From a virus, in IMG/VR virus record IMGVR_UViG_3300025117_000042, positions 1 through 64,000 of that record: a stretch of 64,000 nt of DNA; one strand, given 5' to 3'. The notes under the pieces were generated by a model. The model saw only the letters and a program-made list of their open reading frames with translations, was not told the origin of the DNA and searched no databases. This document shows positions 5,368-28,228 of the stretch, piece by piece (position 1 is the stretch's first letter; every line of letters starts with the position of its first letter). The translations under genes and the position numbers were made by a program.

Positions 5368-5874
5368 ATGAAACGAACATTGGTAACGAGTGATCCACAT
5401 TTAGGCCATGAGAGAGCCGCATTTCATAGGGGTTTCGATACCGTGGAGGAGCACGACGAGCTTATCATCTTTAACTGGAACCGAAAAGCACGTCCTACCG
5501 ATACCGTATACCTGCTGGGGGATGCTGTGTTTAGGCAGTCTACAGCTCTTAGTCTATTAGGTAGATTGAATGGGATCAAAAATCTTATCCTGGGAAACCA
5601 TGAGCATCATGATATTAGCAAATATCTGCCATACTTCCGCAAGATCATGGCAATGGTGATCTATAAAGAGCGATACATCTTCACGCATGTTCCTGTGCAT
5701 CCCTCACAGTTTAATAGATTTGTCGGATTGGTAAATGTACATGGTCATATCCATAAAGGCCAGGATGAATTGTACATCCACGATAAACGATATTTCAACG
5801 TCAATATGGATTTTCACAATCTGACTCCTCTGTATATTGAGGAGTTGGATCAACTTATCAAGGAGAGAGTATGA
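5368..5874 (+). CDS. calcineurin-like metallophosphoesterase
   Basis: SDPHLGH, LGD, GNHE, THVP, HGHIH. Confidence 0.9.
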   Translation: MKRTLVTSDPHLGHERAAFHRGFDTVEEHDELIIFNWNRKARPTDTVYLLGDAVFRQSTALSLLGRLNGIKNLILGNHEHHDISKYLPYFRKIMAMVIYKERYIFTHVPVHPSQFNRFVGLVNVHGHIHKGQDELYIHDKRYFNVNMDFHNLTPLYIEELDQLIKERV

Positions 5875-6827
5875 AAAATCGCATGTTAGTAAAGATGATC
5901 TTTGGTTCTCATCTGTATGGTACAGAGACACCGACAAGCGATCAGGATTTTAAAGGTGTGGCGCTTCCTACCTGGGAACAGGTAGTTTTAGGCCGAATAG
6001 GAAAGCATATAGAGCACTCATCAACAGGGTCTGCTAATAGTAGAAATACAGCTGAAGATGTGGATGTGGAGATATTCACTCTGCATAACTTTATCAAATT
6101 GGCTCTGGAAGGACAAACAGTGGCTTTTGACATGTTACATGCCCCACTTAACAAGCTAATATGGTCTGATTTCATATGGTTCGATCTAGTGTCTAATAGA
6201 GAAAAGTTCTATAGCAAGAATATAAACTCCTTCATTGGCTATGCAGTAGGACAAGCGGCTAAGTACGGGATCAAGGGAAGTAGGTTGAATGCTGCAAAGT
6301 CTGTACTGGAGTGGTTTGAGGGACGGCTGCTTGATTCTAAGCTGATGGATAATGATCTGAGTACCTTTCCTTTCGGGGAGCATGTCAGGTATCTGGAGCC
6401 TGAAGCACCGTTAGGTCAGAGACAGATAGATATATGTGGTAAGCGTATACAGCTTACTACCAAGATCGGTTATGCTGCTTCTATAATAGATCTGTTTTAT
6501 AGAAATTATGGAGAACGAGCTAAACAGGCGGCTAATGACCAGGGGATAGATTGGAAAGCGATTAGCCATGCATTTAGAGCTGCATACCAAATGAAAGAGT
6601 TGTATGCAGAAGGTACTATCACATTTCCTCGTCCTGAAGCTGAAATTTTACGTCACATAAAGACGGGTCAATGTCACTATGTTGATGTTGCTCCTATGCT
6701 GGAAGATCTATTAGATGAGGTTAGGGAGTTGAAAGATAAATCTTCTTTTCCAGAAAAACCGGATCATAAGTTTTGGGATGGGTTCTTGATGGAAGTGATT
6801 GAAAAGCATCTTACACCTGGGAGGTAA
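5871..6827 (+). CDS. Pol-beta superfamily nucleotidyltransferase (T4 NrdC.11-like)
   Basis: FGSHLYGTETPTSDQDFKGV, GYAVGQAAKYGIKGSR, DWKAISHAFR. Confidence 0.85.
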   Translation: MKNRMLVKMIFGSHLYGTETPTSDQDFKGVALPTWEQVVLGRIGKHIEHSSTGSANSRNTAEDVDVEIFTLHNFIKLALEGQTVAFDMLHAPLNKLIWSDFIWFDLVSNREKFYSKNINSFIGYAVGQAAKYGIKGSRLNAAKSVLEWFEGRLLDSKLMDNDLSTFPFGEHVRYLEPEAPLGQRQIDICGKRIQLTTKIGYAASIIDLFYRNYGERAKQAANDQGIDWKAISHAFRAAYQMKELYAEGTITFPRPEAEILRHIKTGQCHYVDVAPMLEDLLDEVRELKDKSSFPEKPDHKFWDGFLMEVIEKHLTPGR

Positions 6828-12588: not shown

Positions 12589-14133
12589 ATGAAAGTACGC
12601 ATTGAAAAAGGTATCAGTGGGGGGGAAGTCAGGTTCTTGACACCAGAGAATCCGGCTGAAGCAGCAGAGCTGTACTTTCTGGAGCTTGCTGGGGAGGTGT
12701 CTTCGAATTCTTCCTTTGGGGATTGGAGAGGTGAAACCAAAAAGAGCGAGGTGCAGCAGATAACGATATCAAAAGGGAACCTGCATAAGGAACGGCTTGT
12801 ACTAAGAGATGTAATAGACAAGAGGGGGAGGAAGGCTAAACGATGGGTGTTGATGCACCAAAATCAGGAAAATAGAGATACTAAATTAACCATACAAACT
12901 GATGAGGTAGACTACAGCAAGGATACCAGAGCCTTTGAGTCTATTTCCGAGACTGAGCTACTAAATCAGGCAACACGTAAGGATATATACAGGCAAATGC
13001 AAAGGAACCTGCAAGGGGTTTCTCGTAAGGTGAACGTTCCGAACGAATTGAAAGGCCCAATGGGGGACGAGGCAGTTAGTATAATAGCAGAAGATATGCG
13101 ATCCGAACTGTCGCTGTACACAAGTTGGCTTGCTGGAGATACTACTGACCTGATGCACTTGTATATTAACCAATTCGAAAAAACGCTTAAGGCGGCAGCT
13201 CCTGAGTTTGCTAACAGTAAAGCCTCAGATCTACAAGCTTTGGGTATAGACACGATCCGTAAGCTTATTCACCAGGATATAGAGTCTACACGGCAAACCT
13301 TCTCCGATCATGGAATCAGGCATATCGTCGGAAACATCCTCTACCAGAACAAAATGATTGATGTATTAAACAAAGAAGGTATCCCGGTGACTCCCAAAGA
13401 GAAGCTTATGGGTATGTTTGTCCAGGTGAACCACGATATAGGCTATACGGTGCCTATAGTGCGCTCAGGTGGCAAGAATGGAGCAGTAGCATCTGGTAAG
13501 CATCCGGCATTCTCTGAGAAGGTTTTGAAGGAACAGAAGCATCTGTGGAACGAAGGCAAAATCTTTACCGAAGATGATTATAATAGAATACTTAACATAA
13601 CCAAACTCCATCAGAAGACTACTCTCTCCCTGGAAGATCCTGTCCTGTTCACCACTCAGATTGCCGACAATACCAGCATGTTCAGTAAAGAGAAAATCCC
13701 ACCTCTGTTTCAGTACATAGATGGATCAAGAGAGATACTTACTGATATGGGATTAGCTGCTAAGAGCGGGGATAAAGAGTGGTTTGAACAGTCAAAGACA
13801 GAGCTGTATAAGAGAGTTGATGCTAGTAACTTTAACAAGAATCTGAAAAGAGACTTGAAAGCTGCTGTTGCTTCTATCAATCAAATGACTCCTAAGTTCA
13901 CTATGGGTATTCTTGCCGGTGAGCTTCAAGGTGTGAGCAGTTCTACCGATGCTGTGATAGAAATAAAAGTTAAGCACAATGAGTATGACGCTTTCTTGTC
14001 ACAGTACCTTGATATGGGACAGAAGAAACTGAGAAGCTTACTGTCTGACTATGGAATCACTGAATACAATAAGACTGAATATCGACTTGGTGAACACAAC
14101 AACAAAACGCTAGTCAAAATCGTAGTAGAATAG
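12589..14133 (+). CDS. HD-domain hydrolase with N-terminal K|G sites and basic hairpin (putative capsid cargo)
   Basis: DHGIRH, NHDIGY, H, IADN; N-terminal VRIEKG and ITISKG...LVLRDVIDKRGRKAKRWV. Confidence 0.7.
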   Translation: MKVRIEKGISGGEVRFLTPENPAEAAELYFLELAGEVSSNSSFGDWRGETKKSEVQQITISKGNLHKERLVLRDVIDKRGRKAKRWVLMHQNQENRDTKLTIQTDEVDYSKDTRAFESISETELLNQATRKDIYRQMQRNLQGVSRKVNVPNELKGPMGDEAVSIIAEDMRSELSLYTSWLAGDTTDLMHLYINQFEKTLKAAAPEFANSKASDLQALGIDTIRKLIHQDIESTRQTFSDHGIRHIVGNILYQNKMIDVLNKEGIPVTPKEKLMGMFVQVNHDIGYTVPIVRSGGKNGAVASGKHPAFSEKVLKEQKHLWNEGKIFTEDDYNRILNITKLHQKTTLSLEDPVLFTTQIADNTSMFSKEKIPPLFQYIDGSREILTDMGLAAKSGDKEWFEQSKTELYKRVDASNFNKNLKRDLKAAVASINQMTPKFTMGILAGELQGVSSSTDAVIEIKVKHNEYDAFLSQYLDMGQKKLRSLLSDYGITEYNKTEYRLGEHNNKTLVKIVVE

Positions 14134-14147
14134 GAGGAACACAAACA

Positions 14148-14927
14148 ATGAGTTTAGGGCTAATTGTTCCTGATGGACACATATATCAGGATCAAGATCT
14201 GTTCCGGTTTTTACCTGTAGGAAATTTAATTGTGAGGCGTAAGCCTGATTGGATTATGACTATGGGGGATTTTCTTGGGATGCAAGCTCTATCTCATTGG
14301 GATAAAAACAAAAGAGTAACTGTAGAGGGGAGGCGATACCGTAAAGATCTGGAAGCTGGAAACTTCGCAATGGATCTAATATTAAAACCTCTCCTTGAAC
14401 TTCAAGACAAGCAACGATCTAATCACAAGCCTGTATACAATCCGCAGAAGATCTACCTGATGGGCAACCATGAAGCCTGGGCAACGAAGTTTGTAGAAGA
14501 GAATCCGTCGATGGAAGGGTTTGTTTGCCCAGCAGAGGATCTGTGTTTAGCTGAACGTGGTTTTGAGGTTATAGAGTACAAGCATTATAAGGAGATTGAA
14601 AACGTATTGTTCACTCATGCTGTCATGAATCAAGCTGGTAAGGCTATAGACGGTAAGCATGCTATCTTCAGAGTGTTTGAAACAACCTCTAAATCTATCA
14701 TCTTTGCTCACACTCATAGAAAAGAAGGTCTATGTGGTAGGAGACAGGGTGAAAAAGATATTATACAAGTGTTTACTTGTGGTTGTTACTTTGAGAAAGA
14801 TGAGCCATTTACAGAGGGTTGCCCCAATCCTTTCTGGCGTGGAGTGTTCATGGTAAACATCTTCGAGCCTGGAAGATTCGACCTGGAGGAGATAAGCATA
14901 CACAGACTATTCACAGAATATTGTTAA
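14148..14927 (+). CDS. calcineurin-like metallophosphoesterase
   Basis: PDGH, MGD, GNHE, FTH, AHTHR. Confidence 0.85.
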   Translation: MSLGLIVPDGHIYQDQDLFRFLPVGNLIVRRKPDWIMTMGDFLGMQALSHWDKNKRVTVEGRRYRKDLEAGNFAMDLILKPLLELQDKQRSNHKPVYNPQKIYLMGNHEAWATKFVEENPSMEGFVCPAEDLCLAERGFEVIEYKHYKEIENVLFTHAVMNQAGKAIDGKHAIFRVFETTSKSIIFAHTHRKEGLCGRRQGEKDIIQVFTCGCYFEKDEPFTEGCPNPFWRGVFMVNIFEPGRFDLEEISIHRLFTEYC

Positions 14928-15070
14928 AACATAATTGTTACGATATACTCAGTATGTAAGCTAACTGAGGGAACTTATACGTCGAAGAGAGCATGGTGTC
15001 TCACTAAATTCAAAAGGCAATAAGCCTATTATAAGTTTCCTTCAGTTTTTTGTTTGTAAAGGATCAGGAG

Positions 15071-15436
15071 ATGCCTTTTCAAGAGCTTGACATACTGGTA
15101 AGGACAGGGGATGGCAGACACTGTGTATTGATGGAGCCATTTGTTTATATTACAAACGGTGGTGAACGTATTGAAGTTACTATCGGTAGTGAGACAGATG
15201 GAGCCAGCACACCTCAGATTATTTGGGATCATCTCCCGCCTTTCGGTAGATATTGGAAAGCAGCCTACCTTCACGATTACCTTTATAGATACACTAATAA
15301 AACAAAAGAAGATTGTGATCTTATATTCCTTGAGGCTCTGCTGTCTCTTGGAGTTGATGCTGTTCTAGCTAATGTCATGTATCAGGGAGTTACAAAAGGG
15401 GGCTGGAAGGCTTTTGATGAGTGCAGAAACAAGTAA
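15071..15436 (+). CDS. DUF1353 family protein
   Basis: TDGASTP...GRYWKAAYLHDYLY...D.IFLEAL; ATG 15071 preferred over TTG 15050. Confidence 0.85.
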   Translation: MPFQELDILVRTGDGRHCVLMEPFVYITNGGERIEVTIGSETDGASTPQIIWDHLPPFGRYWKAAYLHDYLYRYTNKTKEDCDLIFLEALLSLGVDAVLANVMYQGVTKGGWKAFDECRNK

Positions 15437-15466
15437 TCATAAAGCGTAAAGCCACATACACAGTTA

Positions 15467-15513
15467 CGGCGCATTTGGTTTTTCAGTCCTTTCTCCATTT
15501 GCGCCGGTTTTTT
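15467..15513 (+). terminator. putative terminator with large loop
   Basis: CGGCGCA...TGCGCCG-GTTTTTT. Confidence 0.4.
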
Positions 15514-15538
15514 ATTTAATATAAAAAGGTTAGATTAA

Positions 15539-15754
15539 GTGGAAAGCAGAATAGAGGACGCAGGGTTAAGATGCGGAAATTGTAGTGAGTATACACCATT
15601 TCCAGATTATATAATAGAACATCGGGATGTTAAATTTGTAATGCAATGTGCTCACTGTCATAAGAAACATGTATTATACAAGGATACAGTAAGGATGGAA
15701 GCAACACATTCACGCTATGACGATGATGATTACTGGTTGAACCAGAGTATTTGA
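15539..15754 (+). CDS. Zn-ribbon protein
   Basis: CGNC ... CAHC. Confidence 0.55.
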   Translation: MESRIEDAGLRCGNCSEYTPFPDYIIEHRDVKFVMQCAHCHKKHVLYKDTVRMEATHSRYDDDDYWLNQSI

Positions 15755-15769
15755 GAGGGAGAAATAATC

Positions 15770-18700
15770 TTGAAGCTATTTATAAAGTCTGACTACGTGC
15801 GTGTTCAGCATGGCAAGCTTCAGCATGTGCATGATAAGCGTATAAAGCATATCATACCGCTCAAAGGCAGATCTTCTGCATCAGTAAGTCTCCGGTTGGG
15901 TAATGATGGTGCTCTGGACTTCAAAACGATCCTACAGGAGAATCCTAAGCTAATAGATAAGCATGCTCTAGCTGTGCAGGGCTATGTAGGCTTTAAAGCT
16001 AAACAGGGAGAGTCTTCTGAGCAAACTATCAAACGTCTAATAAATCATTTGACTGATAACCTAAGCTGGTTGTATGACCAGATACCGGAAGCAGAGCGCA
16101 AGCAAACAAGACAATGGTACGATGGAGCTAACAAGATAGCTAATGATTGGGCGAAGAAGTATAAGCTGCCAGTGCCTCAAGTTGCCGGTGTAATCGCCTG
16201 TATGTCTCCTCAGCTGGAGTGGTATCAAAACTTGCATCTCGCACAACATATAATAGAAACGTACCAAGGTAAAGACAAGCTCAAATGGGCCGATGGGATG
16301 GCTGAGCAGATCGAACCCAAGGTATTGGCTGAACTTAAGGGAAAAGCCCTGTCTGAGGTCGAGGATGAGGGTTTAAGGGCTATTTGGGTATTGGCTTATA
16401 ACAAGTCTCAGGATAAATCCTCTGTTGATATCTATTCACCTGAAGGTGAAAAGGTAGGACAGCAGGGTCAGACCTACTGGTTCACATCAGCTGCTATAAT
16501 AGCAAAAGCCTGGAACATCCTTGAAGGTAGGCCGATCACAAATAACCTCAGTAAAGCTCACAAAGTAAGGAACTTCTATAACAATATAATAGATCCTAGT
16601 GATGCTGAGAGTGTAACCATTGATACTCATGCTATTGCAGCAGCTTACCTTGCACCTCTGGCTGGCAATGACATTGAAGTGTTACACAACTTTGGTGCTG
16701 CCGCTGGTAAAGGTGAGGTATCACCTGGAACTGCTGCCGGTGTGCTTGGAACATATTACATTGCAGCAGATGCTTATCGTAAAGCCGCACAGAAGGTGGG
16801 TTTACTGCCAAGAGAACTACAATCTATTATATGGGACTTTATCAAGAACAAGTTTGATAAGGGACTCAAAATCAGTAGTGCATCCAGTAAGGAGCTAAAA
16901 AATGCCTGGAGTGAGTATACAGCTGGAAAAAGGAGCCTTGAATCAGTCAGAGCAGAAGTCTCCAAACGATGGAACCAATCCGATTCTAAAGCTTATGGCA
17001 GATCTAAAGCTTCCGATGACAAGGGAAAGCTACATAAAAGTTTGTTTTGGATTGAACGTGAAGGAGAGCGACCTGGGAGCGGAGTTCTTAGCAGAACTAC
17101 CAGATTTACCTTAGCAAAGTCTGATTATATAAGAGTGCGCCTGGGTAGACTTGAGCATGTACATGACAGACGTATACGCAAAGAAAAGCCACAGTCATTT
17201 TATAATGGTCTTACAAAGATAAGCGGCCCATTGGGTAGTAATCCAGGCGGAATATACCAGGACAACAACGGCACAAAGTACTATGTGAAGATCCCGGCTA
17301 ATCAGGACACTGCTATCAATGAGGTAGTAGCCAATAAGCTTTATGAGCTTGCCGGTGTCAAAGTGCCTGAACTTGATCTAATAGATGCCAACGGTAAGCT
17401 GGGTGTGGCAGGTAAATGGATGCAGATGGATGCTGAACGTGTAACTCCTGATAAGGAAGGAGTCTATTCTGGCTTTGTTACTGATGCTTGGCTTGCCAAT
17501 TGGGATGTAGTAGGTATGAGCTACGATAACCTTATGTTAGCTGATGGACAGGCTGTGCGTGTGGACACCGGAGGAGCCTTACTGTACCGAGCCAGGGGAG
17601 AGCGTAAAGGAGCTGCTTTTGGGCCTGCGGTTACTGAGCTGCAAACCTTGCGCGATCCATCCTTGAACGAAACCTCAGCTTCTGTTTTTGCTGGTATTCC
17701 TTTGAGTGCTATTAGAAGTAGTGCTGAAAACGTACTCAATATCCCCAAGAAAGCCATTGTAGACACTGTTAACACCTATGGCTCTAAATGGGATGATATA
17801 ACGAAGCAGCATGTTATTGACACATTGTTGGCAAGGCAAGCTTATATACACAATCTATTCACTACATTTGTACTCAAGTCTGAATATTATAGAGTTCGTA
17901 ACGGTAAACTTGAGTATGTACATGATGGTAGAACAAAGCATCAGGTGTTTCATTACAGTAAGAATCACAATCTTGTTAGGCTTGATCCTACGTACTATGG
18001 AACAGGTATGGCAGGAGGTGAGACTAAACGTAAGAAAACAGATCCTGAGAATTGGGTTGATCGCACTTACTTTTATGTAGGTGAGCACCACACTAAAGAA
18101 GATGGCCTGGGTCAGCATAAGTATATATCAGAGTTCGATCCTAAAGAGATATATGACTTTGCTTCAGATCCAGATAGTCTTCAGTCAACTTCAATAGATT
18201 TCGGGAAGTTCTCTGTTACGAAATACGAAAAGAAGATAAAAGAGGCTGGATACAAAGGTTTTATAGTACATCACCCTCAGCTTGGTAGTGTAATAGCTGC
18301 TTTTTATCCTCAGTCAGTAGATAAGTTGTCGAAAGCTGGGTATATAGCAGTTGACCTGAACAATAGTAAGTTTACTGTCAGTAAATCAGATTATGTCAGG
18401 ATTAGAAACGGTAAACTTGAACATGTACATGATAAGCGTGTTAAGAAGGATAAAAGGTTAGACAGAGCTGTAGCTTCACTGCATAAGTCTATGGATGAGA
18501 TAAAGCATTTGGTAGATCATGAAGAGTGTAGGGTTATAGCACCTGATGGCAAGGTAATTTTCAAGAAAGGTGGAAGCAAGTCTCAAATATCTTTTGTAGA
18601 AGAAGAAATGGCCTTATTCAAAGGTTGCTCTTTTATACATAATCATCCCTCTGGAAGTTCATTCTCACTAGAAGATATAAACTTTGCTATTAAAACAGGA

Positions 18701-18982
18701 ATGAAAGAAATATATGCTGTACATGATGGATTAGTATATAAAATGCATATACCTCAAGGTATATCGGATTTGTATGCTTGGTGGGATACTAAAGGAATTC
18801 TTCTTTATTGGCAATTAGACACAGAGTTAAAGAAAGACTTTACAGCACAGATACAAAGTGGAAAGTTAGCTATAGAAGATGCTAACAAGTTGCACCATCA
18901 TGTCTTGTGGAATAGGTTTACCCATGAGGTTAAGTATGCGTTTAAGGTTGATAGTTTTGTATATAGTAAGGAGACAAGGTAA
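15770..18982 (+). CDS. four-domain effector polyprotein (helical glycosylase-like; HipA/PI3-4K-like kinase; ART-like; JAB), each domain preceded by the same 19-aa motif
   Basis: motif at aa 6, 450, 703, 872; KVRNFYNN..VTIDTHA; GSNPGG..YYVK..NE..NWD..N..RVDTGG; HYS..YFY..AGY.G; E..HNHPSGSSFSLED. Confidence 0.8.
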   Translation: MKLFIKSDYVRVQHGKLQHVHDKRIKHIIPLKGRSSASVSLRLGNDGALDFKTILQENPKLIDKHALAVQGYVGFKAKQGESSEQTIKRLINHLTDNLSWLYDQIPEAERKQTRQWYDGANKIANDWAKKYKLPVPQVAGVIACMSPQLEWYQNLHLAQHIIETYQGKDKLKWADGMAEQIEPKVLAELKGKALSEVEDEGLRAIWVLAYNKSQDKSSVDIYSPEGEKVGQQGQTYWFTSAAIIAKAWNILEGRPITNNLSKAHKVRNFYNNIIDPSDAESVTIDTHAIAAAYLAPLAGNDIEVLHNFGAAAGKGEVSPGTAAGVLGTYYIAADAYRKAAQKVGLLPRELQSIIWDFIKNKFDKGLKISSASSKELKNAWSEYTAGKRSLESVRAEVSKRWNQSDSKAYGRSKASDDKGKLHKSLFWIEREGERPGSGVLSRTTRFTLAKSDYIRVRLGRLEHVHDRRIRKEKPQSFYNGLTKISGPLGSNPGGIYQDNNGTKYYVKIPANQDTAINEVVANKLYELAGVKVPELDLIDANGKLGVAGKWMQMDAERVTPDKEGVYSGFVTDAWLANWDVVGMSYDNLMLADGQAVRVDTGGALLYRARGERKGAAFGPAVTELQTLRDPSLNETSASVFAGIPLSAIRSSAENVLNIPKKAIVDTVNTYGSKWDDITKQHVIDTLLARQAYIHNLFTTFVLKSEYYRVRNGKLEYVHDGRTKHQVFHYSKNHNLVRLDPTYYGTGMAGGETKRKKTDPENWVDRTYFYVGEHHTKEDGLGQHKYISEFDPKEIYDFASDPDSLQSTSIDFGKFSVTKYEKKIKEAGYKGFIVHHPQLGSVIAAFYPQSVDKLSKAGYIAVDLNNSKFTVSKSDYVRIRNGKLEHVHDKRVKKDKRLDRAVASLHKSMDEIKHLVDHEECRVIAPDGKVIFKKGGSKSQISFVEEEMALFKGCSFIHNHPSGSSFSLEDINFAIKTGMKEIYAVHDGLVYKMHIPQGISDLYAWWDTKGILLYWQLDTELKKDFTAQIQSGKLAIEDANKLHHHVLWNRFTHEVKYAFKVDSFVYSKETR
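15785..15841 (+). repeat. KS-hairpin motif A, copy 1 (KSDYVRVQHGKLQHVHDKR)
   Basis: peptide repeat read from translation. Confidence 0.95.
17117..17173 (+). repeat. motif A, copy 2 (KSDYIRVRLGRLEHVHDRR)
   Basis: peptide repeat. Confidence 0.95.
17876..17932 (+). repeat. motif A, copy 3 (KSEYYRVRNGKLEYVHDGR)
   Basis: peptide repeat. Confidence 0.95.
18383..18439 (+). repeat. motif A, copy 4 (KSDYVRIRNGKLEHVHDKR)
   Basis: peptide repeat. Confidence 0.95.
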
Positions 18983-21546
18983 TGTTTATATTAGATGATT
19001 CTGAAATCTTGGAACCTGTGTACAAAAAAGAGGACTTTCCTGAACTATTTGCAGAAGGAAAGAAGGACATAAAGAAGTCAATGGCAGTAACTGTACCTAC
19101 ATCCAAAATCAATCCGATGTTGGTTCCTATACAAAAGGTAGTCCATAAAAAGGGTAAAACTCATACCCAAGTATATTGGGTAAACCCGCATGTTGATACC
19201 AAAGTATTGCTGAACACAAAAAAGGTTGAGATGGCACATGAGCTGGCTAAGCTCGAAACCTTCCCGGTAAAGGATGCATGGAAGAAGTTTATGCATGTTA
19301 CTGAGCCTGTAACGCTCCCTGAAGTTGGGGAGGTCAAGATGAACGTGTCAAGGAGTTTCAGTTTCTCAGAAGAGGGGCTGAACTTTGAGTTCTTCAGTCC
19401 AAATACTAATAGATCAGTCACCTATAGTTTGCCTAAAGGGGATACAGTAAGGCTGGACAGTTTGCACATGAATAATCCAGTTGTAAATAAGCAGATGCTT
19501 ATTGAAAGCTTCTCCTGGCTCAGTAGGCAAGGCATTACAAACGTAAAATATACGCGACCTGTGAACGATACTGCCAATGAGATATCAGCAATGCTTGAGA
19601 ACAGTTTCTCAGCAGTTAAAGATAAAGTTGATAACTATGTTAACTTCTATGTTGATATTACAAAGTATCGTAAAGAAGATAACGTTGAGACATATGCTGA
19701 CTATGCACATGTTAGAAACACAACTGAAAAGGTCATGGAGCTGTACGAGGTAGATGACAGCCGTTCAGCTGTGATTGCCTTTGTAGAGAAACTGTACAAA
19801 GAAGACAAGGATACGTTCATTGCTGTAATAGCTGAGTTGTATGCACTGTCTCCTGCTACAGTTTTAGCTGAAATACACAATATAGTAATAGATAATCCTG
19901 ATTTACGTTACGGCATCTCATCTGTAATAGATTTGTTCAGTACCGGTCATAATATCAGTTTAGCAACAACTTCAGATGTTGTTGAAACAGCAACGTTAGT
20001 ATCAACATTGACTGAAAGTTGGAAAGGTAGCTCAAGATCTTTGGGTGCTCAGCTGTTGCAGTATTATGTAGCAGATCTTACTGGCACTACTAAGCCTTCG
20101 TTTTTCAATCACAATTGTAGTGAGGAGATGTTTAATAGCTTTGTAAAATGGCTACATGGTTCTAACGTAGAAGCTAATATAAAAAGATATGTAAAAGATG
20201 TGTATGAGACTACACAAAAAGAGCTTAAAGCAAAGTATTATGCAGAAAAAAAGCTATCAGAAGAGCCTTCTGATGATTATATGATTACGCTTTACAGGGG
20301 TGTAACTAGCAGCTATAACACATCATCTACCCTGGAGAGCTGGACTGAATCATCAGATGTAGCTTACGACTTTGATGGTTCAGATGTATTTAGAAGAGAC
20401 ATACCTATCAAAGCTGTATACGTGTTCTGGAAGAGTAAGAATTGGCTGCACAAAGAAGTAGGTAGTGTATTTGAGACAGAGAAGGAGCATGTATTGATTA
20501 CTGATATGATACCAGCAGCTTTAATAGAAGATGAAAAGGAAAAGAAATTGACAGCAACAGATCGACTTGCTGAGATAAAAGATCTATTGATTACTATAGC
20601 TGATGCTAATTCTGTCTATTTTCACGCAGGATCTGCTTATGGGGAAGACATAGAGTTACTGAAGTTGGCTATTGTATATGCGGGTGGCGCACATACCAAT
20701 GACCTGAAGAATGCGTTCAATCTGAGTTATGAGGACGCTGAACAGGCATCGGAAGCTATTAATAAGTATTGGAAGAACTATCAGATAGATGAAATGTTGG
20801 ATGAAGCTAAGTACACAGAGCATCCTGAACAGCTTGAAGTTCAGCCTTATGATACTGCTGTAGCTATGCTCAGTCCTAACTTTGTCGTAGATCCACTTAA
20901 CAGACAACATATAATAGACATGATTAATTTTGTAGGTATGGGGAATGTAACAGCACAAGGTATAGCAAACAAGTTGTTACTGCCTGATGACAAAGCCCTG
21001 GAGCTGTATCAGAAGTTAGAAAATAATTGGCACACTATATGGGAAAATACCCAATTCAGTATGGAAGATTCTAAAAAAATGTCTGAAATGGCAATAAGTG
21101 AGGCTATATCAGAGTCAGGTGGGGAAAGCAAATTGCTGTTTGCTGATGAGTTGTCTGAAGTGTGGGCTAAATCATACTTAGATAATCCAGCTAATACCAC
21201 ATATTTTTTTACTACAGAACAGAGAGCAAAGCTTAACTATATATTAGACTACGTACAGGAATACCCAAAGGTAATGCAATCCGGGCTGTGGTCAGATCAA
21301 GCCAAAGATATAATAAACAAGTACAGGGATGCTTTGGCTGAAGAGAACAATATGAAGTCGATTGCAGATTACATAAAGGTAAAGGGTATAGATGACGTTA
21401 AAGAATCTGCGTTAAAAACCCTTTACAATTGGTTAGGCCCAAAAGTAGCTAATCAAACTCATTTGGTACTTGGGATGACAAGTGAGGAAACCGATTCTCT
21501 GTATACAAGGCTTGATGATATGTATGGTGTTTTTGCAGGACTCTAA
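18982..21546 (+). CDS. R-S-ExE ADP-ribosyltransferase domain protein with N-terminal K|S site and hairpin motif B (putative capsid cargo)
   Basis: TLYRGV (20287-20304), ESWT (20335-20346), ETEKE (20473-20487); IKKS...LVPIQKVVHKKGKTHTQVYWV. Confidence 0.7.
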   Translation: MFILDDSEILEPVYKKEDFPELFAEGKKDIKKSMAVTVPTSKINPMLVPIQKVVHKKGKTHTQVYWVNPHVDTKVLLNTKKVEMAHELAKLETFPVKDAWKKFMHVTEPVTLPEVGEVKMNVSRSFSFSEEGLNFEFFSPNTNRSVTYSLPKGDTVRLDSLHMNNPVVNKQMLIESFSWLSRQGITNVKYTRPVNDTANEISAMLENSFSAVKDKVDNYVNFYVDITKYRKEDNVETYADYAHVRNTTEKVMELYEVDDSRSAVIAFVEKLYKEDKDTFIAVIAELYALSPATVLAEIHNIVIDNPDLRYGISSVIDLFSTGHNISLATTSDVVETATLVSTLTESWKGSSRSLGAQLLQYYVADLTGTTKPSFFNHNCSEEMFNSFVKWLHGSNVEANIKRYVKDVYETTQKELKAKYYAEKKLSEEPSDDYMITLYRGVTSSYNTSSTLESWTESSDVAYDFDGSDVFRRDIPIKAVYVFWKSKNWLHKEVGSVFETEKEHVLITDMIPAALIEDEKEKKLTATDRLAEIKDLLITIADANSVYFHAGSAYGEDIELLKLAIVYAGGAHTNDLKNAFNLSYEDAEQASEAINKYWKNYQIDEMLDEAKYTEHPEQLEVQPYDTAVAMLSPNFVVDPLNRQHIIDMINFVGMGNVTAQGIANKLLLPDDKALELYQKLENNWHTIWENTQFSMEDSKKMSEMAISEAISESGGESKLLFADELSEVWAKSYLDNPANTTYFFTTEQRAKLNYILDYVQEYPKVMQSGLWSDQAKDIINKYRDALAEENNMKSIADYIKVKGIDDVKESALKTLYNWLGPKVANQTHLVLGMTSEETDSLYTRLDDMYGVFAGL

Positions 21547-21617
21547 GAGATTTACAAAAGTGACAGCTACCGGTATCCTAAAGTAAGTACATCATCTGTT
21601 ATAAAAGAGGAACACAA

Positions 21618-23147
21618 ATGTCTAAGTTCAATTTCTGGAACTATGCTGTCAGTAAGGTTTTCGGAAAACAGATTGAAGTAATAGCAGAGAGCAAGGCAGA
21701 TGATTATATTCAGAAAGCATTGGGTGACAACGTAAGAGCCGATCAAAGATCTTGGCTATTAGACATACTCAACGCTCAAACTGCTATGGGATTTAAAGAG
21801 AATCCAGCAGCTATTACATACAATACACTCCGCAAGGTTTCCCGCAAAAACCCTATCATAGCAGCGATTATAGGCACCAGGATAAATCAAGTGTGTTCCT
21901 TCTCCAAACAGGTCGATGTTATGGAGTTTTCTGCCAATAAGCCTATAGGGTTCAAAGTAGTGCATAAGCGTAAGCATCGGGAAGATATGAACGAGGCAGA
22001 GAAGAAGTTTGCAAACGAGCTGGAAGATTTTATTACATACTGTGGCTATACCGATAGATTCAGGACAGGCCGGAAGCGGGATAACTTCACTGACTTCTTA
22101 CGTAAGGTAACAAGGGATCGGCTGGTGTTAGATCAGATGTGCTTTGAACGTGTATTAAACAAAGCGAAAGAACCAGCTGAAATATTTGCTGTGGACGCTG
22201 CTACAATCAGGCTTGCTTCAGAAGAGAGCATGAATGATGGTGTAGGTTATTGTCAGGTTGTCCAGGGTCAGGTTGTGAATGAGTATACCTGGGCTGAAAT
22301 GGCTTTCTGTATCAATAACCCTGTTAGTGATATAAATCAGTACGGATATGGATTTTCAGAGCTTGAGCAGCTGATTTCGGTTGTTACAGCTCTTTTTTAT
22401 TCAGACACGTATAATACAAAGTTCTTCTCTCAGGGGTTGGGTGCTCAAGGCATCTTAAATATCGTTACAAAGGATGGTGCTATTCCCACCGATCTTATGG
22501 AAGCGTTCCGGTCACAGTTCCAGGCTACAGCTGCTGGTGCAGCTAACGCATGGAAGACTCCGATCATGAATGCTGACAAGCTGGATTGGATCAATTTGAA
22601 ACAGTCTAATAAAGATATGGAGTTTGTTAAGTGGGTTGAGTATCTAATAAAACTTGCTTGCGCTATCTATCAGATATCTCCTGAAGAAATCAATTTTGAA
22701 ACCAGAGGTTCTGGTAGTTCTTCGATGTTTGAGTCTAATCCTGAAGGACGGCTTAAATACAGCAAGGACAAAGGGCTAAGACCGCTGCTTACCTTTCTGT
22801 CAGATCATATCACTGAACACTTCGTTGAGCCTTATTCTCTGGATTATATGATGATTTTTACTGGTCTGGATGAAAAGGAAGAGAAGGATGCAGCTGAAAT
22901 CCGTAAAATAGAAGTTGAGTCTTATAAAACTCTTGATGAAGTACGTGCAGAAGCACAACTAGACCCTCTTGGTGAGGAGAATGGCGGTAATCTGGTACTC
23001 AATCCTCAGTATATTACACATAAGAACCAACAGGCCATGATTGAGCAGCAGAAAGAGATGCAAGCCAGCTTGGGTAGTGGTTTTAGTAGTAGCTATGAAG
23101 ACAGTAATAGTGTGAAACGTGGAGTCAAGAGTGGAAAAGACGAATAA
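21618..23147 (+). CDS. portal protein
   Basis: FLRKVTRDRLVLDQMCFE, FAVDAATIR, GYGFSELE, DMEF.KW..YLI...CAIY.I.P.EINF, SKDKGL.PLL, TLDEVR. Confidence 0.95.
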   Translation: MSKFNFWNYAVSKVFGKQIEVIAESKADDYIQKALGDNVRADQRSWLLDILNAQTAMGFKENPAAITYNTLRKVSRKNPIIAAIIGTRINQVCSFSKQVDVMEFSANKPIGFKVVHKRKHREDMNEAEKKFANELEDFITYCGYTDRFRTGRKRDNFTDFLRKVTRDRLVLDQMCFERVLNKAKEPAEIFAVDAATIRLASEESMNDGVGYCQVVQGQVVNEYTWAEMAFCINNPVSDINQYGYGFSELEQLISVVTALFYSDTYNTKFFSQGLGAQGILNIVTKDGAIPTDLMEAFRSQFQATAAGAANAWKTPIMNADKLDWINLKQSNKDMEFVKWVEYLIKLACAIYQISPEEINFETRGSGSSSMFESNPEGRLKYSKDKGLRPLLTFLSDHITEHFVEPYSLDYMMIFTGLDEKEEKDAAEIRKIEVESYKTLDEVRAEAQLDPLGEENGGNLVLNPQYITHKNQQAMIEQQKEMQASLGSGFSSSYEDSNSVKRGVKSGKDE

Positions 23148-24123
23148 CATCACATTTGTAATAGACAAGTCTTACTATACACGCATCCGTCATGGCAAGC
23201 TTGAGCATGTACATGATAATAGAGTGCGTAAGACTCCAGAGAAAAATTCTGATTTGCGTATCACCATTAAAGAACTCAACAGAGCTTTGACTAAAGGCAC
23301 TGTAGGTATAATTTCAGCTGGCAGGAATACTAATAGTGAAAAAGATCTGCAACTGACAGAAGAAGAGATTGAGAAGCGATACGCCGATCTTGAGAATAAG
23401 CTATTAAAAGATGGTAGAGCCTTTATACGGGCAAAAGGTGTATGGGAAGGCGGGGAAGAGCGGTCTTATATTGTAGCTATTCCTAACAAAGACAGAAGTT
23501 ATCTGATAAAGCTTGGTGTCAAGTACAACCAGGATTCAGTTATATTTGTCAACGAAGGCAGGAATGAGTACATCTACTGTACAGGCCCGAACAAAGGTCA
23601 ATGTCATATCGGCAAGAAGTTCGAAGAAGTAGCAGCTGACATACCATCGGGTTACACTGAGATAGATGCAGTCGGTGCTTCACCATATAAGTTTGCTCTT
23701 GACTTCGACTTTGATAATACAAAACCAGTTAGAAAATCTTACGTAGTAGAAATGATTGCGAAGTCAGACTACGTGCGGGTTCGTAACGGTAGGCTTGAGT
23801 ATGTGCATGATACAAGGGTAGCTCATCCGGTTGAACGTCGTTCAGCTGAGTCAGAAATTGAGTTTGATACACAGCTGAAGGTGTGGGATATGGAACTGGA
23901 GAATCTTACGCGGAAAGAGCATGCTGTAGACTTCATGGATGCACAGTCTCTAATAGAGATATCAAAGAAGAAAGCAGATATCTACACTGCCATGATTGCT
24001 GCCCTGGAGCCTAGAGTAAGTAAGATCGAAGATAAGCCTCGCTATGATTTCGACATGCGCGATACTTTGCTGCATGAGATAAAAATTCCACCTAAGCTAC
24101 TGACAGTCAAAGGAGCGGATTAA
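23119..24123 (+). CDS. two-module cargo protein: SAM lyase (T3 SAMase/DUF3293-like) plus small helical domain, each after motif A
   Basis: IISAGR...GVWEGGEERSYIV...LGVKYNQDSVIF...FEEV...GYTEID; start could be GTG 23131 (GGAG RBS). Confidence 0.75.
   Translation: MESRVEKTNNITFVIDKSYYTRIRHGKLEHVHDNRVRKTPEKNSDLRITIKELNRALTKGTVGIISAGRNTNSEKDLQLTEEEIEKRYADLENKLLKDGRAFIRAKGVWEGGEERSYIVAIPNKDRSYLIKLGVKYNQDSVIFVNEGRNEYIYCTGPNKGQCHIGKKFEEVAADIPSGYTEIDAVGASPYKFALDFDFDNTKPVRKSYVVEMIAKSDYVRVRNGRLEYVHDTRVAHPVERRSAESEIEFDTQLKVWDMELENLTRKEHAVDFMDAQSLIEISKKKADIYTAMIAALEPRVSKIEDKPRYDFDMRDTLLHEIKIPPKLLTVKGAD
23167..23223 (+). repeat. motif A, copy 5 (KSYYTRIRHGKLEHVHDNR)
   Basis: peptide repeat. Confidence 0.95.
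23761..23817 (+). repeat. motif A, copy 6 (KSDYVRVRNGRLEYVHDTR)
   Basis: peptide repeat. Confidence 0.95.
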
Positions 24124-25187
24124 TGGATTTTGTAATAGAAAAATCAGTAAGAGCCGGTCTGATTCCTATAAGAAAGACTGTCACTCAAAACGGTAGAACC
24201 TTTCAGAGGACGTACTGGTGTAAACAGAAGGATCTGCAAAGCTTCAATGCTACAGCTCCTGCTGTCGAGTTTCTTGCTGCCAGTATAGAGACTCAGAAAG
24301 AGATGATGGATATTGTTTCACAGCTTGAGGACTATAATCAGGGACTCGCTGCTGAAATATACAACGAAATGCAAAAGAGTGGTGAAACGTCTATTAAAAT
24401 AGCTGATAAGATCGCTAAAGTGTCTGATTGGGTTACTGCCAGGGAAACCAACATGACCACCTTTCTCGCTGGTATGAGACAGCTGCTGAATGAGAAAGGC
24501 AAGATCGACATGGCAGATCTAGCTAAGACCTACCAGGATGTGTCTTATCAGTACCATAAGATGGGCCTGGAGCTTTCCACTGTCAATGCTGAAGGTAAAG
24601 AGAAACCTCTGAAAAAGATGGGAGTCATTCAGGATCTTGTTCCTATGAACTGGACTGATACTGTCAAGGAAGTAGGAGCTGCTTTGCGTGAATCTATTAA
24701 AAACGGTCTGACTACCTTACGTGCTGTATGGGGTAAGCTGGGCCGAGCCAAGATACCTAAACAGCCAGAGGAGCTTGATTACAGGCTGAAGGAGAACAAG
24801 GGTAAGCTGGAAGAGCTGTACGAGGAGTACCAGAAGCAAGCTCCAGATCTACGACCTCCGAAACGTAAGCTCACTGAGGAGCAAAAGCTTGCCCTGGAAG
24901 GTACTCCAGCTCCTGCTCCTAAAGGTGATAATAAGAAGAAATTCACTATCAATCCTGAAGCTCCTATGAAGAAGAAACCTGCAAAGAAAGCTCCAGATAA
25001 CATTGATATTAGCAAAATAAGTTATAAGCGTCCTGAAGATATTACTATGAAAGAGCTTAAAGCTATCAAGAAACAGGCTGAGACACAGTTCAAACAGGTT
25101 GTTGCTGAGTATGGTTCATGGGAGAATGTACCTGAGCATGTTAAACATCTGATTATTTCACTAACGTTAAAGACAGGAGCGAAGTAA
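24123..25187 (+). CDS. putative internal head protein with FVIEK|S and hairpin motif B; helical body, Lys/Pro-rich tail
   Basis: MDFVIEKSVRAGLIPIRKTVTQNGRTFQRTYWC; between portal and protease. Confidence 0.65.
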   Translation: MDFVIEKSVRAGLIPIRKTVTQNGRTFQRTYWCKQKDLQSFNATAPAVEFLAASIETQKEMMDIVSQLEDYNQGLAAEIYNEMQKSGETSIKIADKIAKVSDWVTARETNMTTFLAGMRQLLNEKGKIDMADLAKTYQDVSYQYHKMGLELSTVNAEGKEKPLKKMGVIQDLVPMNWTDTVKEVGAALRESIKNGLTTLRAVWGKLGRAKIPKQPEELDYRLKENKGKLEELYEEYQKQAPDLRPPKRKLTEEQKLALEGTPAPAPKGDNKKKFTINPEAPMKKKPAKKAPDNIDISKISYKRPEDITMKELKAIKKQAETQFKQVVAEYGSWENVPEHVKHLIISLTLKTGAK

Positions 25188-25316: not shown

Positions 25317-26123
25317 ATGAAACTGCATAAACCAGACTTTAAACTGTTCTTTGAATTCGATTGTATAGAAAAAGCTGAGGATGGAGAGAAATCTCGTAGA
25401 ATCTGTGGTTATGCTTCTACTGAGGCTCTGGACAAGCAAGGTGAAATCCTTGTACAGAAGGGGCTGGACTTTACTGACTTCCTGAAGTCTGGTTGGTTCA
25501 ACGATAACCATGATCGTACTACTACCGGTGTCCTGGGCTATCCTACCAAAGTAGAGTATCACGAAGGCAAGGGATGGTATGTTGAAGGCTACATGGTCAA
25601 GGGATACCGGAGGGCTGATGAGATTTGGGAGCTTGCCAATGCTCTGCAAAAGTCTAATAGACGATTGGGATTCTCAGTAGAGGGTAACAACGTAAAACGT
25701 GACTCAGTGCAGACTAACAAGGTATTGAAGTGTAAAGTTACAAATGTAGCTATTACACATTGTCCTGTTAATGCTGAGTGTACGATGGAAGTACTGGCTA
25801 AAAGCTTCTGTAGTCACTGTGAATCAGAAAAATGCATTGAGTGTAACGCTGATTGTGTTAAGTCTCTTGAGGCTGGATACGAGCAGTCAACCGATATGGA
25901 AGGTGGCGCAGCACTAAGAAAACAGAGCATTGACGGTGAATGTAAATGTCAGAAGGAAGGCAGCACTTGCAAGAAATGTAATAAAAAAACTGACAAGTCC
26001 ATGTTATCGTATAAAGAAGCAATGGACGTAATAGTAAATCGAGGGTATGATAAGAATCATGCCGAGAAGATATTATCACGTCTGGATGAACTAGGTTACT
26101 TTGAGACAAAAGTAGAAGAATAA
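25317..26123 (+). CDS. prohead (maturation) protease, HK97/assemblin-like fold
   Basis: GYASTEALDKQGE, NDNH, LGFSVEG, VAITHCPVN; position between portal and scaffold. Confidence 0.92.
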   Translation: MKLHKPDFKLFFEFDCIEKAEDGEKSRRICGYASTEALDKQGEILVQKGLDFTDFLKSGWFNDNHDRTTTGVLGYPTKVEYHEGKGWYVEGYMVKGYRRADEIWELANALQKSNRRLGFSVEGNNVKRDSVQTNKVLKCKVTNVAITHCPVNAECTMEVLAKSFCSHCESEKCIECNADCVKSLEAGYEQSTDMEGGAALRKQSIDGECKCQKEGSTCKKCNKKTDKSMLSYKEAMDVIVNRGYDKNHAEKILSRLDELGYFETKVEE

Positions 26124-26147: not shown

Positions 26148-26771
26148 ATGGCTGGTGAAGAAAAAGTTATCGCTCAGGATAAACTGGAAAAAGCTCTTGA
26201 AGGTCTGGATGAGCTTTTGAAAAGTGAAAAACCTGTCGATGACAAAGAAGAAAAAAAGGGCGAAGTAGAAGAAACAGAGGAAAAATCCTTTGCCAAAGTT
26301 GCTGAGGAAAATGAAACTCTGAATAAAAGCATGGATGTTGCTCCTTTCCTTGCCGAGCTGGTGAATGTAATTGGTGAGCACATGGACAACTCCGCAGCTT
26401 CCCTCAGTAAGTCAATGGTAGAGCAGAGAGAAAGTCAGGCTAAGTTCAACGAGAATCTGGTAAAGTCTCTGAAAGAACTTGGTGATGCACTTCTTTCTAT
26501 TACAAAACGTCAGGATGAACTTGAAAAAGAGCCTGTCGGTGTTAAGAAATCAATCACAGCCAAACCGGTTGAACGTCAATTCGCAAAATCTGGTGAGGAA
26601 GAAGGACAGGAACAGAGACTCACGAAGTCAATGGTTGCCAGTAAGATCACTGACCTGATTATCAAAGGCGAAATTGTTGGCGGTACTCCTGTTACTCAGG
26701 CCGAGCTTACCAAGTTTGAAGCAACCGGCCAGATGCGCCCTGAACTGAGAGAACTTTTCGTAAAAAAATAA
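26148..26771 (+). CDS. scaffolding protein
   Basis: acidic coiled-coil between protease and MCP; eight [LVF]xK[SA] sites. Confidence 0.8.
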   Translation: MAGEEKVIAQDKLEKALEGLDELLKSEKPVDDKEEKKGEVEETEEKSFAKVAEENETLNKSMDVAPFLAELVNVIGEHMDNSAASLSKSMVEQRESQAKFNENLVKSLKELGDALLSITKRQDELEKEPVGVKKSITAKPVERQFAKSGEEEGQEQRLTKSMVASKITDLIIKGEIVGGTPVTQAELTKFEATGQMRPELRELFVKK

Positions 26772-26809: not shown

Positions 26810-28228
26810 ATGTTTGAGAATGACGTTGAAGGATTTGGGATTGGTACTTCGCAGGATGTAGCAGAGCTTAACAAAGCTTTGACTGCTGGTTACGAAGAAA
26901 CCACAAGCATGACCGGTGGTGCGGCTCTGCGTGTTCAATCCCTGGAAAACACCCTTAAGCTTCTTACTTTCCGTGAAGACCACATGGTCATGTGGAAAGA
27001 CATTTCGAAACTCCCGGCTTACAGTACTGTTGAAGAATACAGTCAGCAGACTTCTGTAGGTAGCGACAATCCTGGGTTCACAGGCGAAGGTGTTGCGCCG
27101 GAAGAAGATGATTCTGGATATGCCCGTAAAGCATCCCTGGTTAAATTCCTTGGGACTACCCGCAAAATTACGCATCCGATGCAGTTGGTACGTACAATCA
27201 ATGGTGATGCAGTTGCACGTGAATCGACCAACGGTATCCTCAAAGTAATGCGTGATGCCGAATTCGGTCTGCTTTGGGGTAACAGTGATCTTGTATACAC
27301 TGCTGCTGGTACTACTCCTGAAGGTCTTGAGTGGGATGGCTTGAATGTACTGATCGACGCAACTAACGACCTTGACCTTTCCAATAGGAACTTGGAAGAG
27401 GGCGACTTTACAACTATGGGTGAAACCATTGCTAATAGCTTTGGCTACATCAATCGTTGTTACGTCCCTAATAGTGTAGCATCCACTCTGGATGTTTCCT
27501 TGCTACCTAAAGAGCGTATCGCCCTTCCTGGTGCAAACGGAATGGAAGTCGGCACCAACGTAGGATCTGTAAAAACTTCCTTCGGTAAAATTGCTGTTCG
27601 TCCTTCGTTGTTCATGGGGGCTGCTCTTACTGCTGGTCGTTCCCCGAAGAAAACCCCTCCGGCTGCTGCTACTTCCACCAAAGCTCCTGCTGCTCCAGCT
27701 TCCATAGCTGCTAGCTCTCTGACAGGTACTGATGGTAGATTCCGCGCAGCTCAGGTTGGTGTATGCACTTTTAAAGCCACCGCCTGTAACAGATACGGAG
27801 AGTCTGCTCCTACAGCTGCCACTAGCAACGTAACTGTTGGGGCTGGTGATGTTGCCAAACATATTCCTTTGGCAATTACAAACAGCGCATCGTCTGAGAC
27901 AGTTATTCCTGACTATTTCAACATCTACTGTTCTCCGGTAGGCACCGCAGCTTGGTATCTCGTTGCTTCCGTACCTTGTACTGATAAGACCAATAGTGGT
28001 ACAGGCGCATCTTATAACTATACTGGTTATATCATGCCAAACACTGCTATCTGTTTTGCTGGTCAGTTTGACAGTGAAATTCTGGTATTCAAACAGTTGG
28101 CTCCGATCATGAAAATGGACTTGGCAGTAATTGAGCCTTCCTATCGTTTCATGATTCTGCTGTACGGTGTTCCTCAGCTGTTTGCGCCTAAAAAACTTAT
28201 GCGTGTTATCAACGTCAAAGATTATTAA
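26810..28228 (+). CDS. major capsid protein (Herelleviridae-like, with Ig-like insertion)
   Basis: KALTAGY...GGAALRVQSLE, AYSTVEEY, VKFLG, EWDGL, LAPIMKMDLA...FMILLYG. Confidence 0.95.
   Translation: MFENDVEGFGIGTSQDVAELNKALTAGYEETTSMTGGAALRVQSLENTLKLLTFREDHMVMWKDISKLPAYSTVEEYSQQTSVGSDNPGFTGEGVAPEEDDSGYARKASLVKFLGTTRKITHPMQLVRTINGDAVARESTNGILKVMRDAEFGLLWGNSDLVYTAAGTTPEGLEWDGLNVLIDATNDLDLSNRNLEEGDFTTMGETIANSFGYINRCYVPNSVASTLDVSLLPKERIALPGANGMEVGTNVGSVKTSFGKIAVRPSLFMGAALTAGRSPKKTPPAAATSTKAPAAPASIAASSLTGTDGRFRAAQVGVCTFKATACNRYGESAPTAATSNVTVGAGDVAKHIPLAITNSASSETVIPDYFNIYCSPVGTAAWYLVASVPCTDKTNSGTGASYNYTGYIMPNTAICFAGQFDSEILVFKQLAPIMKMDLAVIEPSYRFMILLYGVPQLFAPKKLMRVINVKDY

Follow-up and report, generated by a model that had tools for sequence, protein, structure and literature searches.

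Around its portal gene, an uncultured phage of the myovirus type repeats one short peptide element in front of protein domains that are unrelated to one another, which raises the question of what this element does. The phage is known as IMG/VR record IMGVR_UViG_3300025117_000042, a contig of 103,540 bp with nearly all genes on the + strand and a tail sheath gene at 45007-46773; we analysed its first 64 kb (64,000 nucleotides, referred to here as the window). The element is a short hydrophobic leader ending in Lys, followed in most copies by Ser and then by a predicted basic hairpin, of which there are two classes, A and B. We found that the Lys-Ser junction matches the cutting rule that we derived for the phage's own head protease, and so the proteins that carry the element are probably loaded into the capsid, separated by the protease and injected. 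That the portal-flanking genes form a polyvalent, virion-delivered enzyme set, loaded by the leaders and freed by the head protease at hydrophobic-x-K↓S/A (↓ marks a cut site, predicted unless a published one is named), is a reading of the sequence to which we give an even chance.

An earlier, sequence-only reading of this DNA had listed six copies of hairpin A. When we scanned all six frames of the window with the strict pattern K-S-x-Y-x-R-[VI]-x-x-G-[KR]-L-[EQ]-[HY]-V-H-D, we recovered exactly these six, all on the + strand (15785, 17117, 17876, 18383, 23167 and 23761), and none elsewhere. A hidden Markov model (HMM) of the six copies, run against the six-frame open reading frames (ORFs) of the whole 103.5-kb genome, found no seventh copy. 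With their leaders, the copies are placed as follows:

15770..15850, + strand: leader MKLFIK↓S and hairpin A, copy 1 (N-terminal)
17102..17182, + strand: leader RFTLAK↓S and hairpin A, copy 2
17861..17941, + strand: leader TTFVLK↓S and hairpin A, copy 3
18368..18448, + strand: leader KFTVSK↓S and hairpin A, copy 4
23152-23232 and 23746-23826, + strand: hairpin A, copies 5 and 6, both in a 334-residue protein

In the peptide alignment of the six copies 10 of 37 columns are invariant, and in the DNA alignment the mean column identity is 62% with many synonymous differences. The peptide columns are invariant while the codons have diverged, so selection acts on the peptide, as the sequence-only reading had argued. 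These numbers also bear on the possibility that the repeats arose incidentally, through recent DNA duplication or as recombination joints, and do nothing at the peptide level. The order of modules does differ between relatives, with breakpoints at the hairpins; however, a DNA identity of only about 62% between copies, together with synonymous changes and ten invariant peptide columns, does not look like recent duplication, and the motif is also retained in the distant proteins P0011, P0015, P0016, P0017 and P0019. Because the codons have diverged, this explanation is largely refuted, and we regard it as very improbable.

For structure prediction we used an alignment of 13 hairpin-A copies, six from the window and seven from L001, a related 102.8-kb contig that is syntenic with the window. 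AF2 (AlphaFold2) predicts a two-stranded beta-hairpin with strands DYVRIR and KLEHVH (residues 8-13 and 16-21) at a predicted local distance difference test score (pLDDT) of about 91, and leaves the five-residue leader unpaired. In a low-confidence model of the whole 334-residue protein, both hairpins are present and are not packed against the enzyme core. All hairpins are basic (+0.6 to +6.4) and the scaffold of the phage is acidic (–11). The leaders show alternating hydrophobic residues (F-T-I-x-K). In P0011, P0012, P0020 and P0024, the hairpin, of class A or B, follows a leader of a second conserved type, LxDYxDxxIxK↓[SG]F. The two hairpin classes themselves do not appear to be homologous to each other (hhalign E 0.33), and we rejected that relationship.

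The sequence-only reading had proposed a profile search for hairpin A; run against 1.84 billion representative proteins, it gave 12 matches at E below 1e-3, two of which are translated repeat junk. The strict hairpin-A DNA pattern was present in IMG/VR only in L001 and in L002 (a fragment), and in JGI metagenomes in the same contig and two chance matches. A search of IMG/VR for loci related to P0015, P0017 and P0019 found none, and among GenBank phages hairpin A had no tblastn match, even at E 10. No family in Pfam or NCBIfam covers hairpin A or hairpin B, and the sole PHROG match to the window hairpins, a weak one, was phrog_21154 (47 residues, function unknown). Judged by these searches, hairpin A is restricted to a small uncultured clade.

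Is the Lys-Ser junction a protease site? The head genes downstream of and including the portal are:

21618..23147, + strand: portal protein (PF04860, E 1.7e-18; phrog_15361 and phrog_12)
25317..26123, + strand: prohead (head maturation) protease (phrog_1028, E 2e-61; tblastn matches to Herelleviridae proteases)
26148..26771, + strand: acidic scaffolding protein (phrog_15087; 8 KS dipeptides; charge –11)
26810..28228, + strand: major capsid protein (MCP), predicted maturation site LNK22↓A23 (26873-26878)

The protease shares 42% identity with its prohead counterpart in Exiguobacterium phage vB_EalM-132, and the MCP about 40% with the MCPs of CP-51, JL, SPO1-like and YungSlug phages, which makes both proteins Herelleviridae-type by sequence. 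The gene order protease-scaffold-MCP, with all three genes homologous, is that of the Herelleviridae head module. A DNA-level search of GenBank phages found no match to the window phage. The genes that carry the element (the cargo genes) flank the portal on both sides and lie upstream of protease, scaffold and MCP; the first strong terminator-like site, with 15 stem pairs, follows at 29168, and none of more than 11 pairs precedes it.

We derived the cutting rule from MCP and scaffold sites and did not use the cargo. The N-terminus of the window MCP (..AELNK22↓A23LTAGYE..GGAALR) aligns with that of the A511-like Listeria phage LMTA-34 (..EDALK23↓S24FTTGY..AGALR), and the MCPs of vB_EalM-132, SPO1L1 and YungSlug read ..LNK↓AL[ES]AG[YH] at the same site. 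The window site is aligned with the K23↓S24 position, which we take to be the cut in the A511 capsid protein Cps; Loessner and Scherer are said to have described in 1995 that Cps is cleaved at Lys23↓Ser24. In each of the four phages whose proteases were compared (window, LMTA-34, vB_EalM-132 and YungSlug), the C-terminal part of the protease repeats the MCP maturation site; in the window this duplicate reads CVK↓SLEAGYE..GGAALRKQS where the MCP has LNK↓ALTAGYE..GGAALRVQS. Ahead of the duplicated site, the window protease has a Cys-rich insert with several CxxC motifs. The scaffolds are rich in KS dipeptides, with 8 observed and 1.8 expected in the window (p 6e-4), 11 and 2.2 in YungSlug, 13 and 2.7 in vB_EalM-132 and 12 and 3.2 in SPO1L1; KS is absent from the whole MCPs of the window, vB_EalM-132 and SPO1L1. 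At P3, a hydrophobic residue is found in 8 of 9 K[SA] sites of the window scaffold. Scaffolds from five further phages contain 64 K[SA] sites, 49 of which have one of L, I, V, M and F at P3; the corresponding figure for the 96 non-head ORFs of the window phage is 60 of 232 (Fisher p 3e-13). From these sites we infer that the head protease follows the rule hydrophobic-x-K↓S/A.

All 13 hairpin-A copies of the window and L001 fit this rule, with one of L, I, V, M and F at P3 and a K↓S or K↓A junction, and the N-terminal leaders end at sites that match it in sequence (MKLFIK↓S, ..ITFVIDK↓S and MDFVIEK↓S). Ten tags of this kind had been proposed from the sequence. Eight are kept in L001 as hydrophobic-x-K↓S/A and a ninth, ITISK↓G of the protein at 12589, is VTLQK↓S in the L001 orthologue, which retains the hairpin-like segment; the tenth, the N-terminal VRIEK↓G of the same protein, is not retained there. 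The proposal that the tags form a delivery cassette thus gains from the Herelleviridae-type protease and MCP, the aligned MCP site, the P3 bias of the scaffolds and the fit of 13 out of 13 hairpin-A copies. The motif, its modularity, its genomic context and its match to the protease rule are observed directly; packaging, cleavage and a binding role of the hairpin are what we infer from them.

The same junctions could instead sit inside multidomain polyvalent proteins that are never cut, with the hairpins serving as nucleic-acid- or protein-binding modules between domains and K-S as part of their motif. This would suit hairpins that are basic and predicted to be free-standing, and the conservation of the Lys and the residues after it as a single block. 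It would also suit L001, where the modules are joined in one chain of 1923 residues, and passages of PMC5512222 describe some polyvalent proteins as travelling full-length. However, the hydrophobic-x-K↓S/A that is invariant in the hairpin units agrees with a rule drawn independently from scaffolds and MCP, the N-terminal copies have leaders of 6-17 residues without an upstream domain to link, and a YungSlug protein starts at the predicted mature end (see below). We therefore consider uncut proteins unlikely.

The cargo proteins that would be cut under the preferred reading are:

12589..14133, + strand: 514-residue protein, ITISK↓G and then a hairpin-B-like segment; no Pfam match; the weakest member of the set
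15770..18982, + strand: 1070-residue polyvalent protein, hairpin A-DUF7178-hairpin A-HipA-like-hairpin A-unassigned domain-hairpin A-HNHPSG (RadC/JAB-type) domain
18982..21546, + strand: 854-residue protein directly upstream of the portal, DIKK↓S, hairpin B, an acidic body and an ART-like stretch at about residues 400-560
23119..24123, + strand: 334-residue protein, hairpin A-SAM lyase (about 23308-23643)-hairpin A-helical C-terminal part
24123..25187, + strand: 354-residue basic protein, leader MDFVIEK↓S, hairpin B, a helical body and a Lys-rich tail

As the sequence-only reading had stated, the segments that follow the hairpins are dissimilar to each other (all-against-all blastp, every E > 0.1), so that the four segments of the 1070-residue protein and the two of the 334-residue protein are unrelated and both chains have the polyvalent build of at least two unrelated domains. 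Two domain identities are solid predictions. The first is DUF7178 in the 1070-residue protein (PF23802, E 4e-30), which is solid as a family assignment from sequence. The second is the SAM lyase of the 334-residue protein, on which Pfam and the modelled fold agree: like the phage enzyme typified by T3 SAMase, the domain passes the gathering cut-off of PF23780 (35.1 bits with a cut-off of 28), and the seven best Foldseek matches to the 334-residue model are phage SAM lyases, headed by T3 SAM lyase 8bb1_E at E 9e-4 for a model whose mean pLDDT is only 47 (core 60-89). The HipA-like kinase (Pfam HipA_2, E 0.064; protein-language features 0.92) is a lead only, as is the ART-like stretch of the 854-residue protein, where features and structure point to DRAT/ART clusters. 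The last domain of the 1070-residue protein has an HNHPSG motif typical of RadC-type JAB domains and no Pfam match. The sequence-only reading saw HD-type motifs in the 514-residue protein. Pfam and NCBIfam scans of the window proteins found no zincin-like or other peptidase family, and a HEFAH motif was seen only in the vB_EalM-132 relative. PDB sequence searches with the three large proteins returned nothing useful. The 354-residue basic protein has relatives in P0023 (from L001) and P0024, and in another lineage P0011 is a stand-alone protein of hairpin A and SAM lyase. The SAM-lyase protein begins at a GTG inside the portal gene, so that the two genes share the final 29 portal bases (23119-23147) in different frames, and the database protein P0010 starts four codons downstream of this GTG.

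Comparison with L001 shows that the modules move relative to each other. In the window, the order is [A] DUF7178 [A] HipA-like [A] unassigned domain [A] RadC/JAB-motif domain, a stop codon and then [B] with the 854-residue protein. In L001, the cargo is the single 1923-residue chain, in which the polyvalent protein is fused to the counterpart of the 854-residue protein, and the order is [A] DGHHRW (ParB-type) module [A] HipA-like [A] unassigned domain and a DLDKT (HAD-type) stretch [A] DUF7178 [B] counterpart of the 854-residue protein. The extra L001 modules (DGHHRW and DLDKT) match nothing in Pfam. Homology between the window and L001 begins or ends at hairpins, and hairpin A copy 3 of the window is orthologous to the L001 copy ahead of the same domain (21 of 27 residues identical). 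L001 keeps its hairpins and does not have the JAB-motif domain, and it has an additional hairpin-A gene of 100 residues just ahead of the protease. The re-ordering of modules between the two contigs supports the plug-and-play character that had been suggested for the element.

Hairpin B was found where it had been placed before, in a whole-genome HMM scan: at 19120-19185 and 24159-24221, with a weaker relative at 12796-12849. The A and B copies all lie within 12.6-25.2 kb, around the portal and the protease. The leaders ahead of hairpin B (VIEK↓S and DIKK↓S in the window, TIEK↓A and RVVK↓S in L001) fit hydrophobic-x-K↓S/A. When we used window hairpin B as a tblastn query, we found YungSlug, two Lysinibacillus and two Thermus phages (E 8e-4 to 8e-3), with all matches in the head module. 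Leader and hairpin B head unannotated portal-adjacent proteins of SPO1-like, JL, vB_EalM-132 and YungSlug phages: JL gp86 has ELIIDVSK↓A and then ..GKLVKRAVQVKGQGGRTFTRMQW, JL gp87 and gp89 carry the pair as well, and so do vB_EalM-132 proteins 00060, 00061 and 00063. In SPO1L1, a 144-residue protein immediately upstream of the portal (L014:4776-5210) consists of a leader, the hairpin and a Lys/Glu-rich tail. The YungSlug protein annotated 'PARP polymerase' (L012:7995-10604), directly upstream of the portal, opens with hairpin B and no leader (MTRAGLMPVQR...), which is the start predicted for the window 354-residue protein after the cut (…EK↓SVRAGLIPIRK…); its similarity to the window 854-residue protein is confined to the hairpin.

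The Spounavirinae proteins with hairpin B are labelled 'hypothetical' in databases and match no Pfam family, and four PHROGs share their motif. Profile comparison ties window hairpin B to the Spounavirinae motif with moderate strength only (hhalign E 2.9e-4, probability 40%). We draw the link mainly because of the tblastn matches, the shared position and the visible pattern. By sequence, then, leader and hairpin B are not unique to the window phage, and cultured Spounavirinae carry the pair always adjoining the portal. The sequence-only reading knew of no description of the motif. In its general form the concept is documented, both for packaged polyvalent effectors (PMC5512222) and for T4, where leaders direct packaging and the protease takes them off. 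The small unannotated protein just upstream of the portal in SPO1-type phages (L014:4776-5210 in SPO1L1, L011:9175-9717 in JL, where it is gp89, and L010:5711-6241) combines a leader whose end is K↓G with a hairpin-B-like motif and a tail rich in Lys and Glu, and may be a conserved internal head or DNA-binding protein. Outside Herelleviridae, Thermus phage Cumys encodes a 572-residue protein after the portal and a minor head protein (L013:2922-4640), in which a hairpin-B-like motif, RPGLMPVRKTVRRGGRTHEQTYYV, lies about 35 residues from the N-terminus.

A position next to the portal also suggests that leader and hairpin together could be a docking element for the portal, the scaffold or the capsid interior, with processing elsewhere or by another peptidase such as the JAB-motif domain. 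Analogues exist in the SPP1 gp7-portal interaction and in the cargo-loading peptides of encapsulins. The tagged genes lie on both sides of the portal, the alternating hydrophobic leader residues (F-T-I-x-K) would suit beta-strand addition, and the second leader type is used with both hairpin classes. However, Pfam and NCBIfam scans of the window proteins found no MuF domain (PF04233) in the cargo proteins, which sets them apart from SPP1 gp7, and L001 keeps the hairpins without the JAB-motif domain. Docking is also compatible with K↓S cutting rather than exclusive of it. As an explanation in place of cutting by the head protease, we find docking distinctly unlikely. The portal N-terminus itself contains ..DDYIQK↓A (window 21618-21720), similar to the second leader type and consistent with the protease rule, so that trimming of the portal is possible as well.

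In the preferred reading, the set would include the SAM lyase, the HipA-like kinase, the ART-like protein, DUF7178 and the RadC/JAB-motif domain, and would be made late with the head genes. Each module would open with an extended leader (hydrophobic-x-Lys), Ser or Ala and a basic two-stranded beta-hairpin of class A or B. The leader, possibly together with the hairpin, would draw the precursor into the assembling prohead, and the Herelleviridae-type prohead protease would then cut after the leader Lys. The same protease would trim the MCP at LNK↓A and break up the acidic scaffold, which has many L-x-K↓S sites. Some eight or nine individual products would be released, each with its own basic hairpin at the start, by which it would stay bound first to the acidic scaffold and afterwards to DNA, up to its ejection with the genome.

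Several points weigh against this sequence of events. Most of the cargo domain assignments are leads only. The K-S could be a mere part of a folded or binding motif; the P2' residue is hydrophobic in 58% of scaffold sites but is Asp, Glu, Tyr or Asn in hairpin A. Prohead proteases can cut non-virion substrates outside proheads, in cells (PMC12991175), so that cleavage alone would be no proof of packaging. The weakest step concerns what the hairpin does. None is present at the sites in MCP, scaffold and protease, so the protease does not need one, and one loading tag per polyprotein would suffice, so that loading does not call for a hairpin on every module. Since the hairpin is needless for cutting and one tag is enough for loading, a role after cleavage is favoured; that the hairpin then holds the product on the acidic scaffold and later on DNA has, in our estimate, about one chance in three.

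The activity of prohead proteases in cells (PMC12991175) is also what an unpackaged set would draw on: the head protease, or one from the host, would process late cytoplasmic polyproteins, and the products would act in the producing cell. However, SAM lyase, ART-like and kinase-like domains would be useful at entry and not at the end of infection, and the location inside the head module, with portal-adjacent hairpin-B proteins conserved across Spounavirinae, points to a role in the head. We judge such a set improbable. A broader version of the virion-delivery reading is that leader, K↓S and basic hairpin are a portable cassette for capsid loading and release, used from SPO1-type phages to the window clade. 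In it, the leader would dock any passenger in the prohead, the protease would free it, the hairpin would tether the product to DNA for co-ejection, and hairpin-coding stretches would be the in-frame joints at which new effector modules swap in. This version is possible but doubtful.

How does the proposed virion delivery compare to known systems? In T4, the internal proteins IPI-III and Alt have a capsid targeting sequence that is removed by the prohead protease gp21. T4 capsid targeting is covered by reviews (PMC9026906 and PMC3012670). As in T4, the window cargo has short N-terminal leaders that end, by sequence, at the consensus of the head protease; like that of T4, this cargo would comprise anti-restriction and host-modifying enzymes as well as an ART, and the genes would be expressed with the head genes. 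In contrast to T4, where the site is L/I-x-E↓, the window phage has hydrophobic-x-K↓S/A. T4 cargo consists of separate single-domain proteins without a conserved hairpin after the cut, whereas the window element recurs inside polyproteins too. By analogy, the window system would work like that of T4 and is not a member of the T4 type.

Packaged polyvalent effectors encoded near portal genes are a concept of Iyer et al. 2017 (PMC5512222). In the passages of PMC5512222 that bear on this, polyvalent proteins resemble the window cargo in having several unrelated effector-type domains per polypeptide, a place beside portal and packaging genes, predicted injection, a mosaic domain order among orthologues and a RadC-type motif; the window genes likewise lie within or beside the virion genes of a portal-terminase phage. 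The same passages propose processing by a built-in zincin-like metallopeptidase, a common but not universal trait that the scans described above did not find in the window proteins. In contrast, a leader-K↓S-hairpin that fits the head protease recurs at the domain boundaries of the window proteins, and term searches of PMC5512222 turned up no such punctuation element in the text that they reached.

In other systems, the parts are distributed differently. The prohead protease of SPN3US and phiKZ has the consensus S/A/G-x-E. The ejection proteins of these phages (PMC7411985 and PMC10052503) are alike in that they are numerous, lie inside the head, undergo trimming by the head protease at a simple consensus and enter the cell by ejection, and unlike in their consensus, long propeptides, capsid lineage and lack of a repeated hairpin module. 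The P1 Dar anti-restriction proteins (PMC12810830 and PMC9024508) are also loaded during head assembly and delivered with the DNA; however, they are loaded by the incorporation order of DarA and Hdf, with no repeated protease-matched peptide tag. Capsid maturation at Lys↓Ser of the A511/HK97 type shares with the window a homologous protease and MCP and the aligned site, but the Lys↓Ser cut is known there for the capsid protein only, and its use on a suite of cargo is proposed here. The general concept of packaged effectors and leader removal is thus established, and an element that combines leader, protease rule and hairpin on a cargo suite is the new part.

If this reading is correct, the injected effectors of the lineage could be recognised from sequence by leader, protease-matched Lys↓Ser and hairpin. 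T3 expresses its SAM lyase early after entry, whereas the SAM lyase of the window phage would be pre-made and capsid-borne. The unannotated portal-adjacent proteins of the well-studied SPO1-type phages would acquire a function, in phages that allow a direct test of the idea, and there would be a short tag with which foreign proteins could be loaded into capsids of the Herelleviridae type.

Other genes of the window stand apart from the element. A metallophosphoesterase (phrog_221, 14148-14927) lies between the tagged genes without leader or hairpin, and its position is kept in L001. The early region encodes a Thg1-like tRNA-His guanylyltransferase (phrog_4717, E 2.5e-75) and a nucleotidyltransferase (phrog_388), at 2548-3237 and 5871-6827. 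Downstream of the head genes, a 1087-residue protein (31953-35216) contains a long array of repeats of about 20 residues (..VET.., ..IES..).

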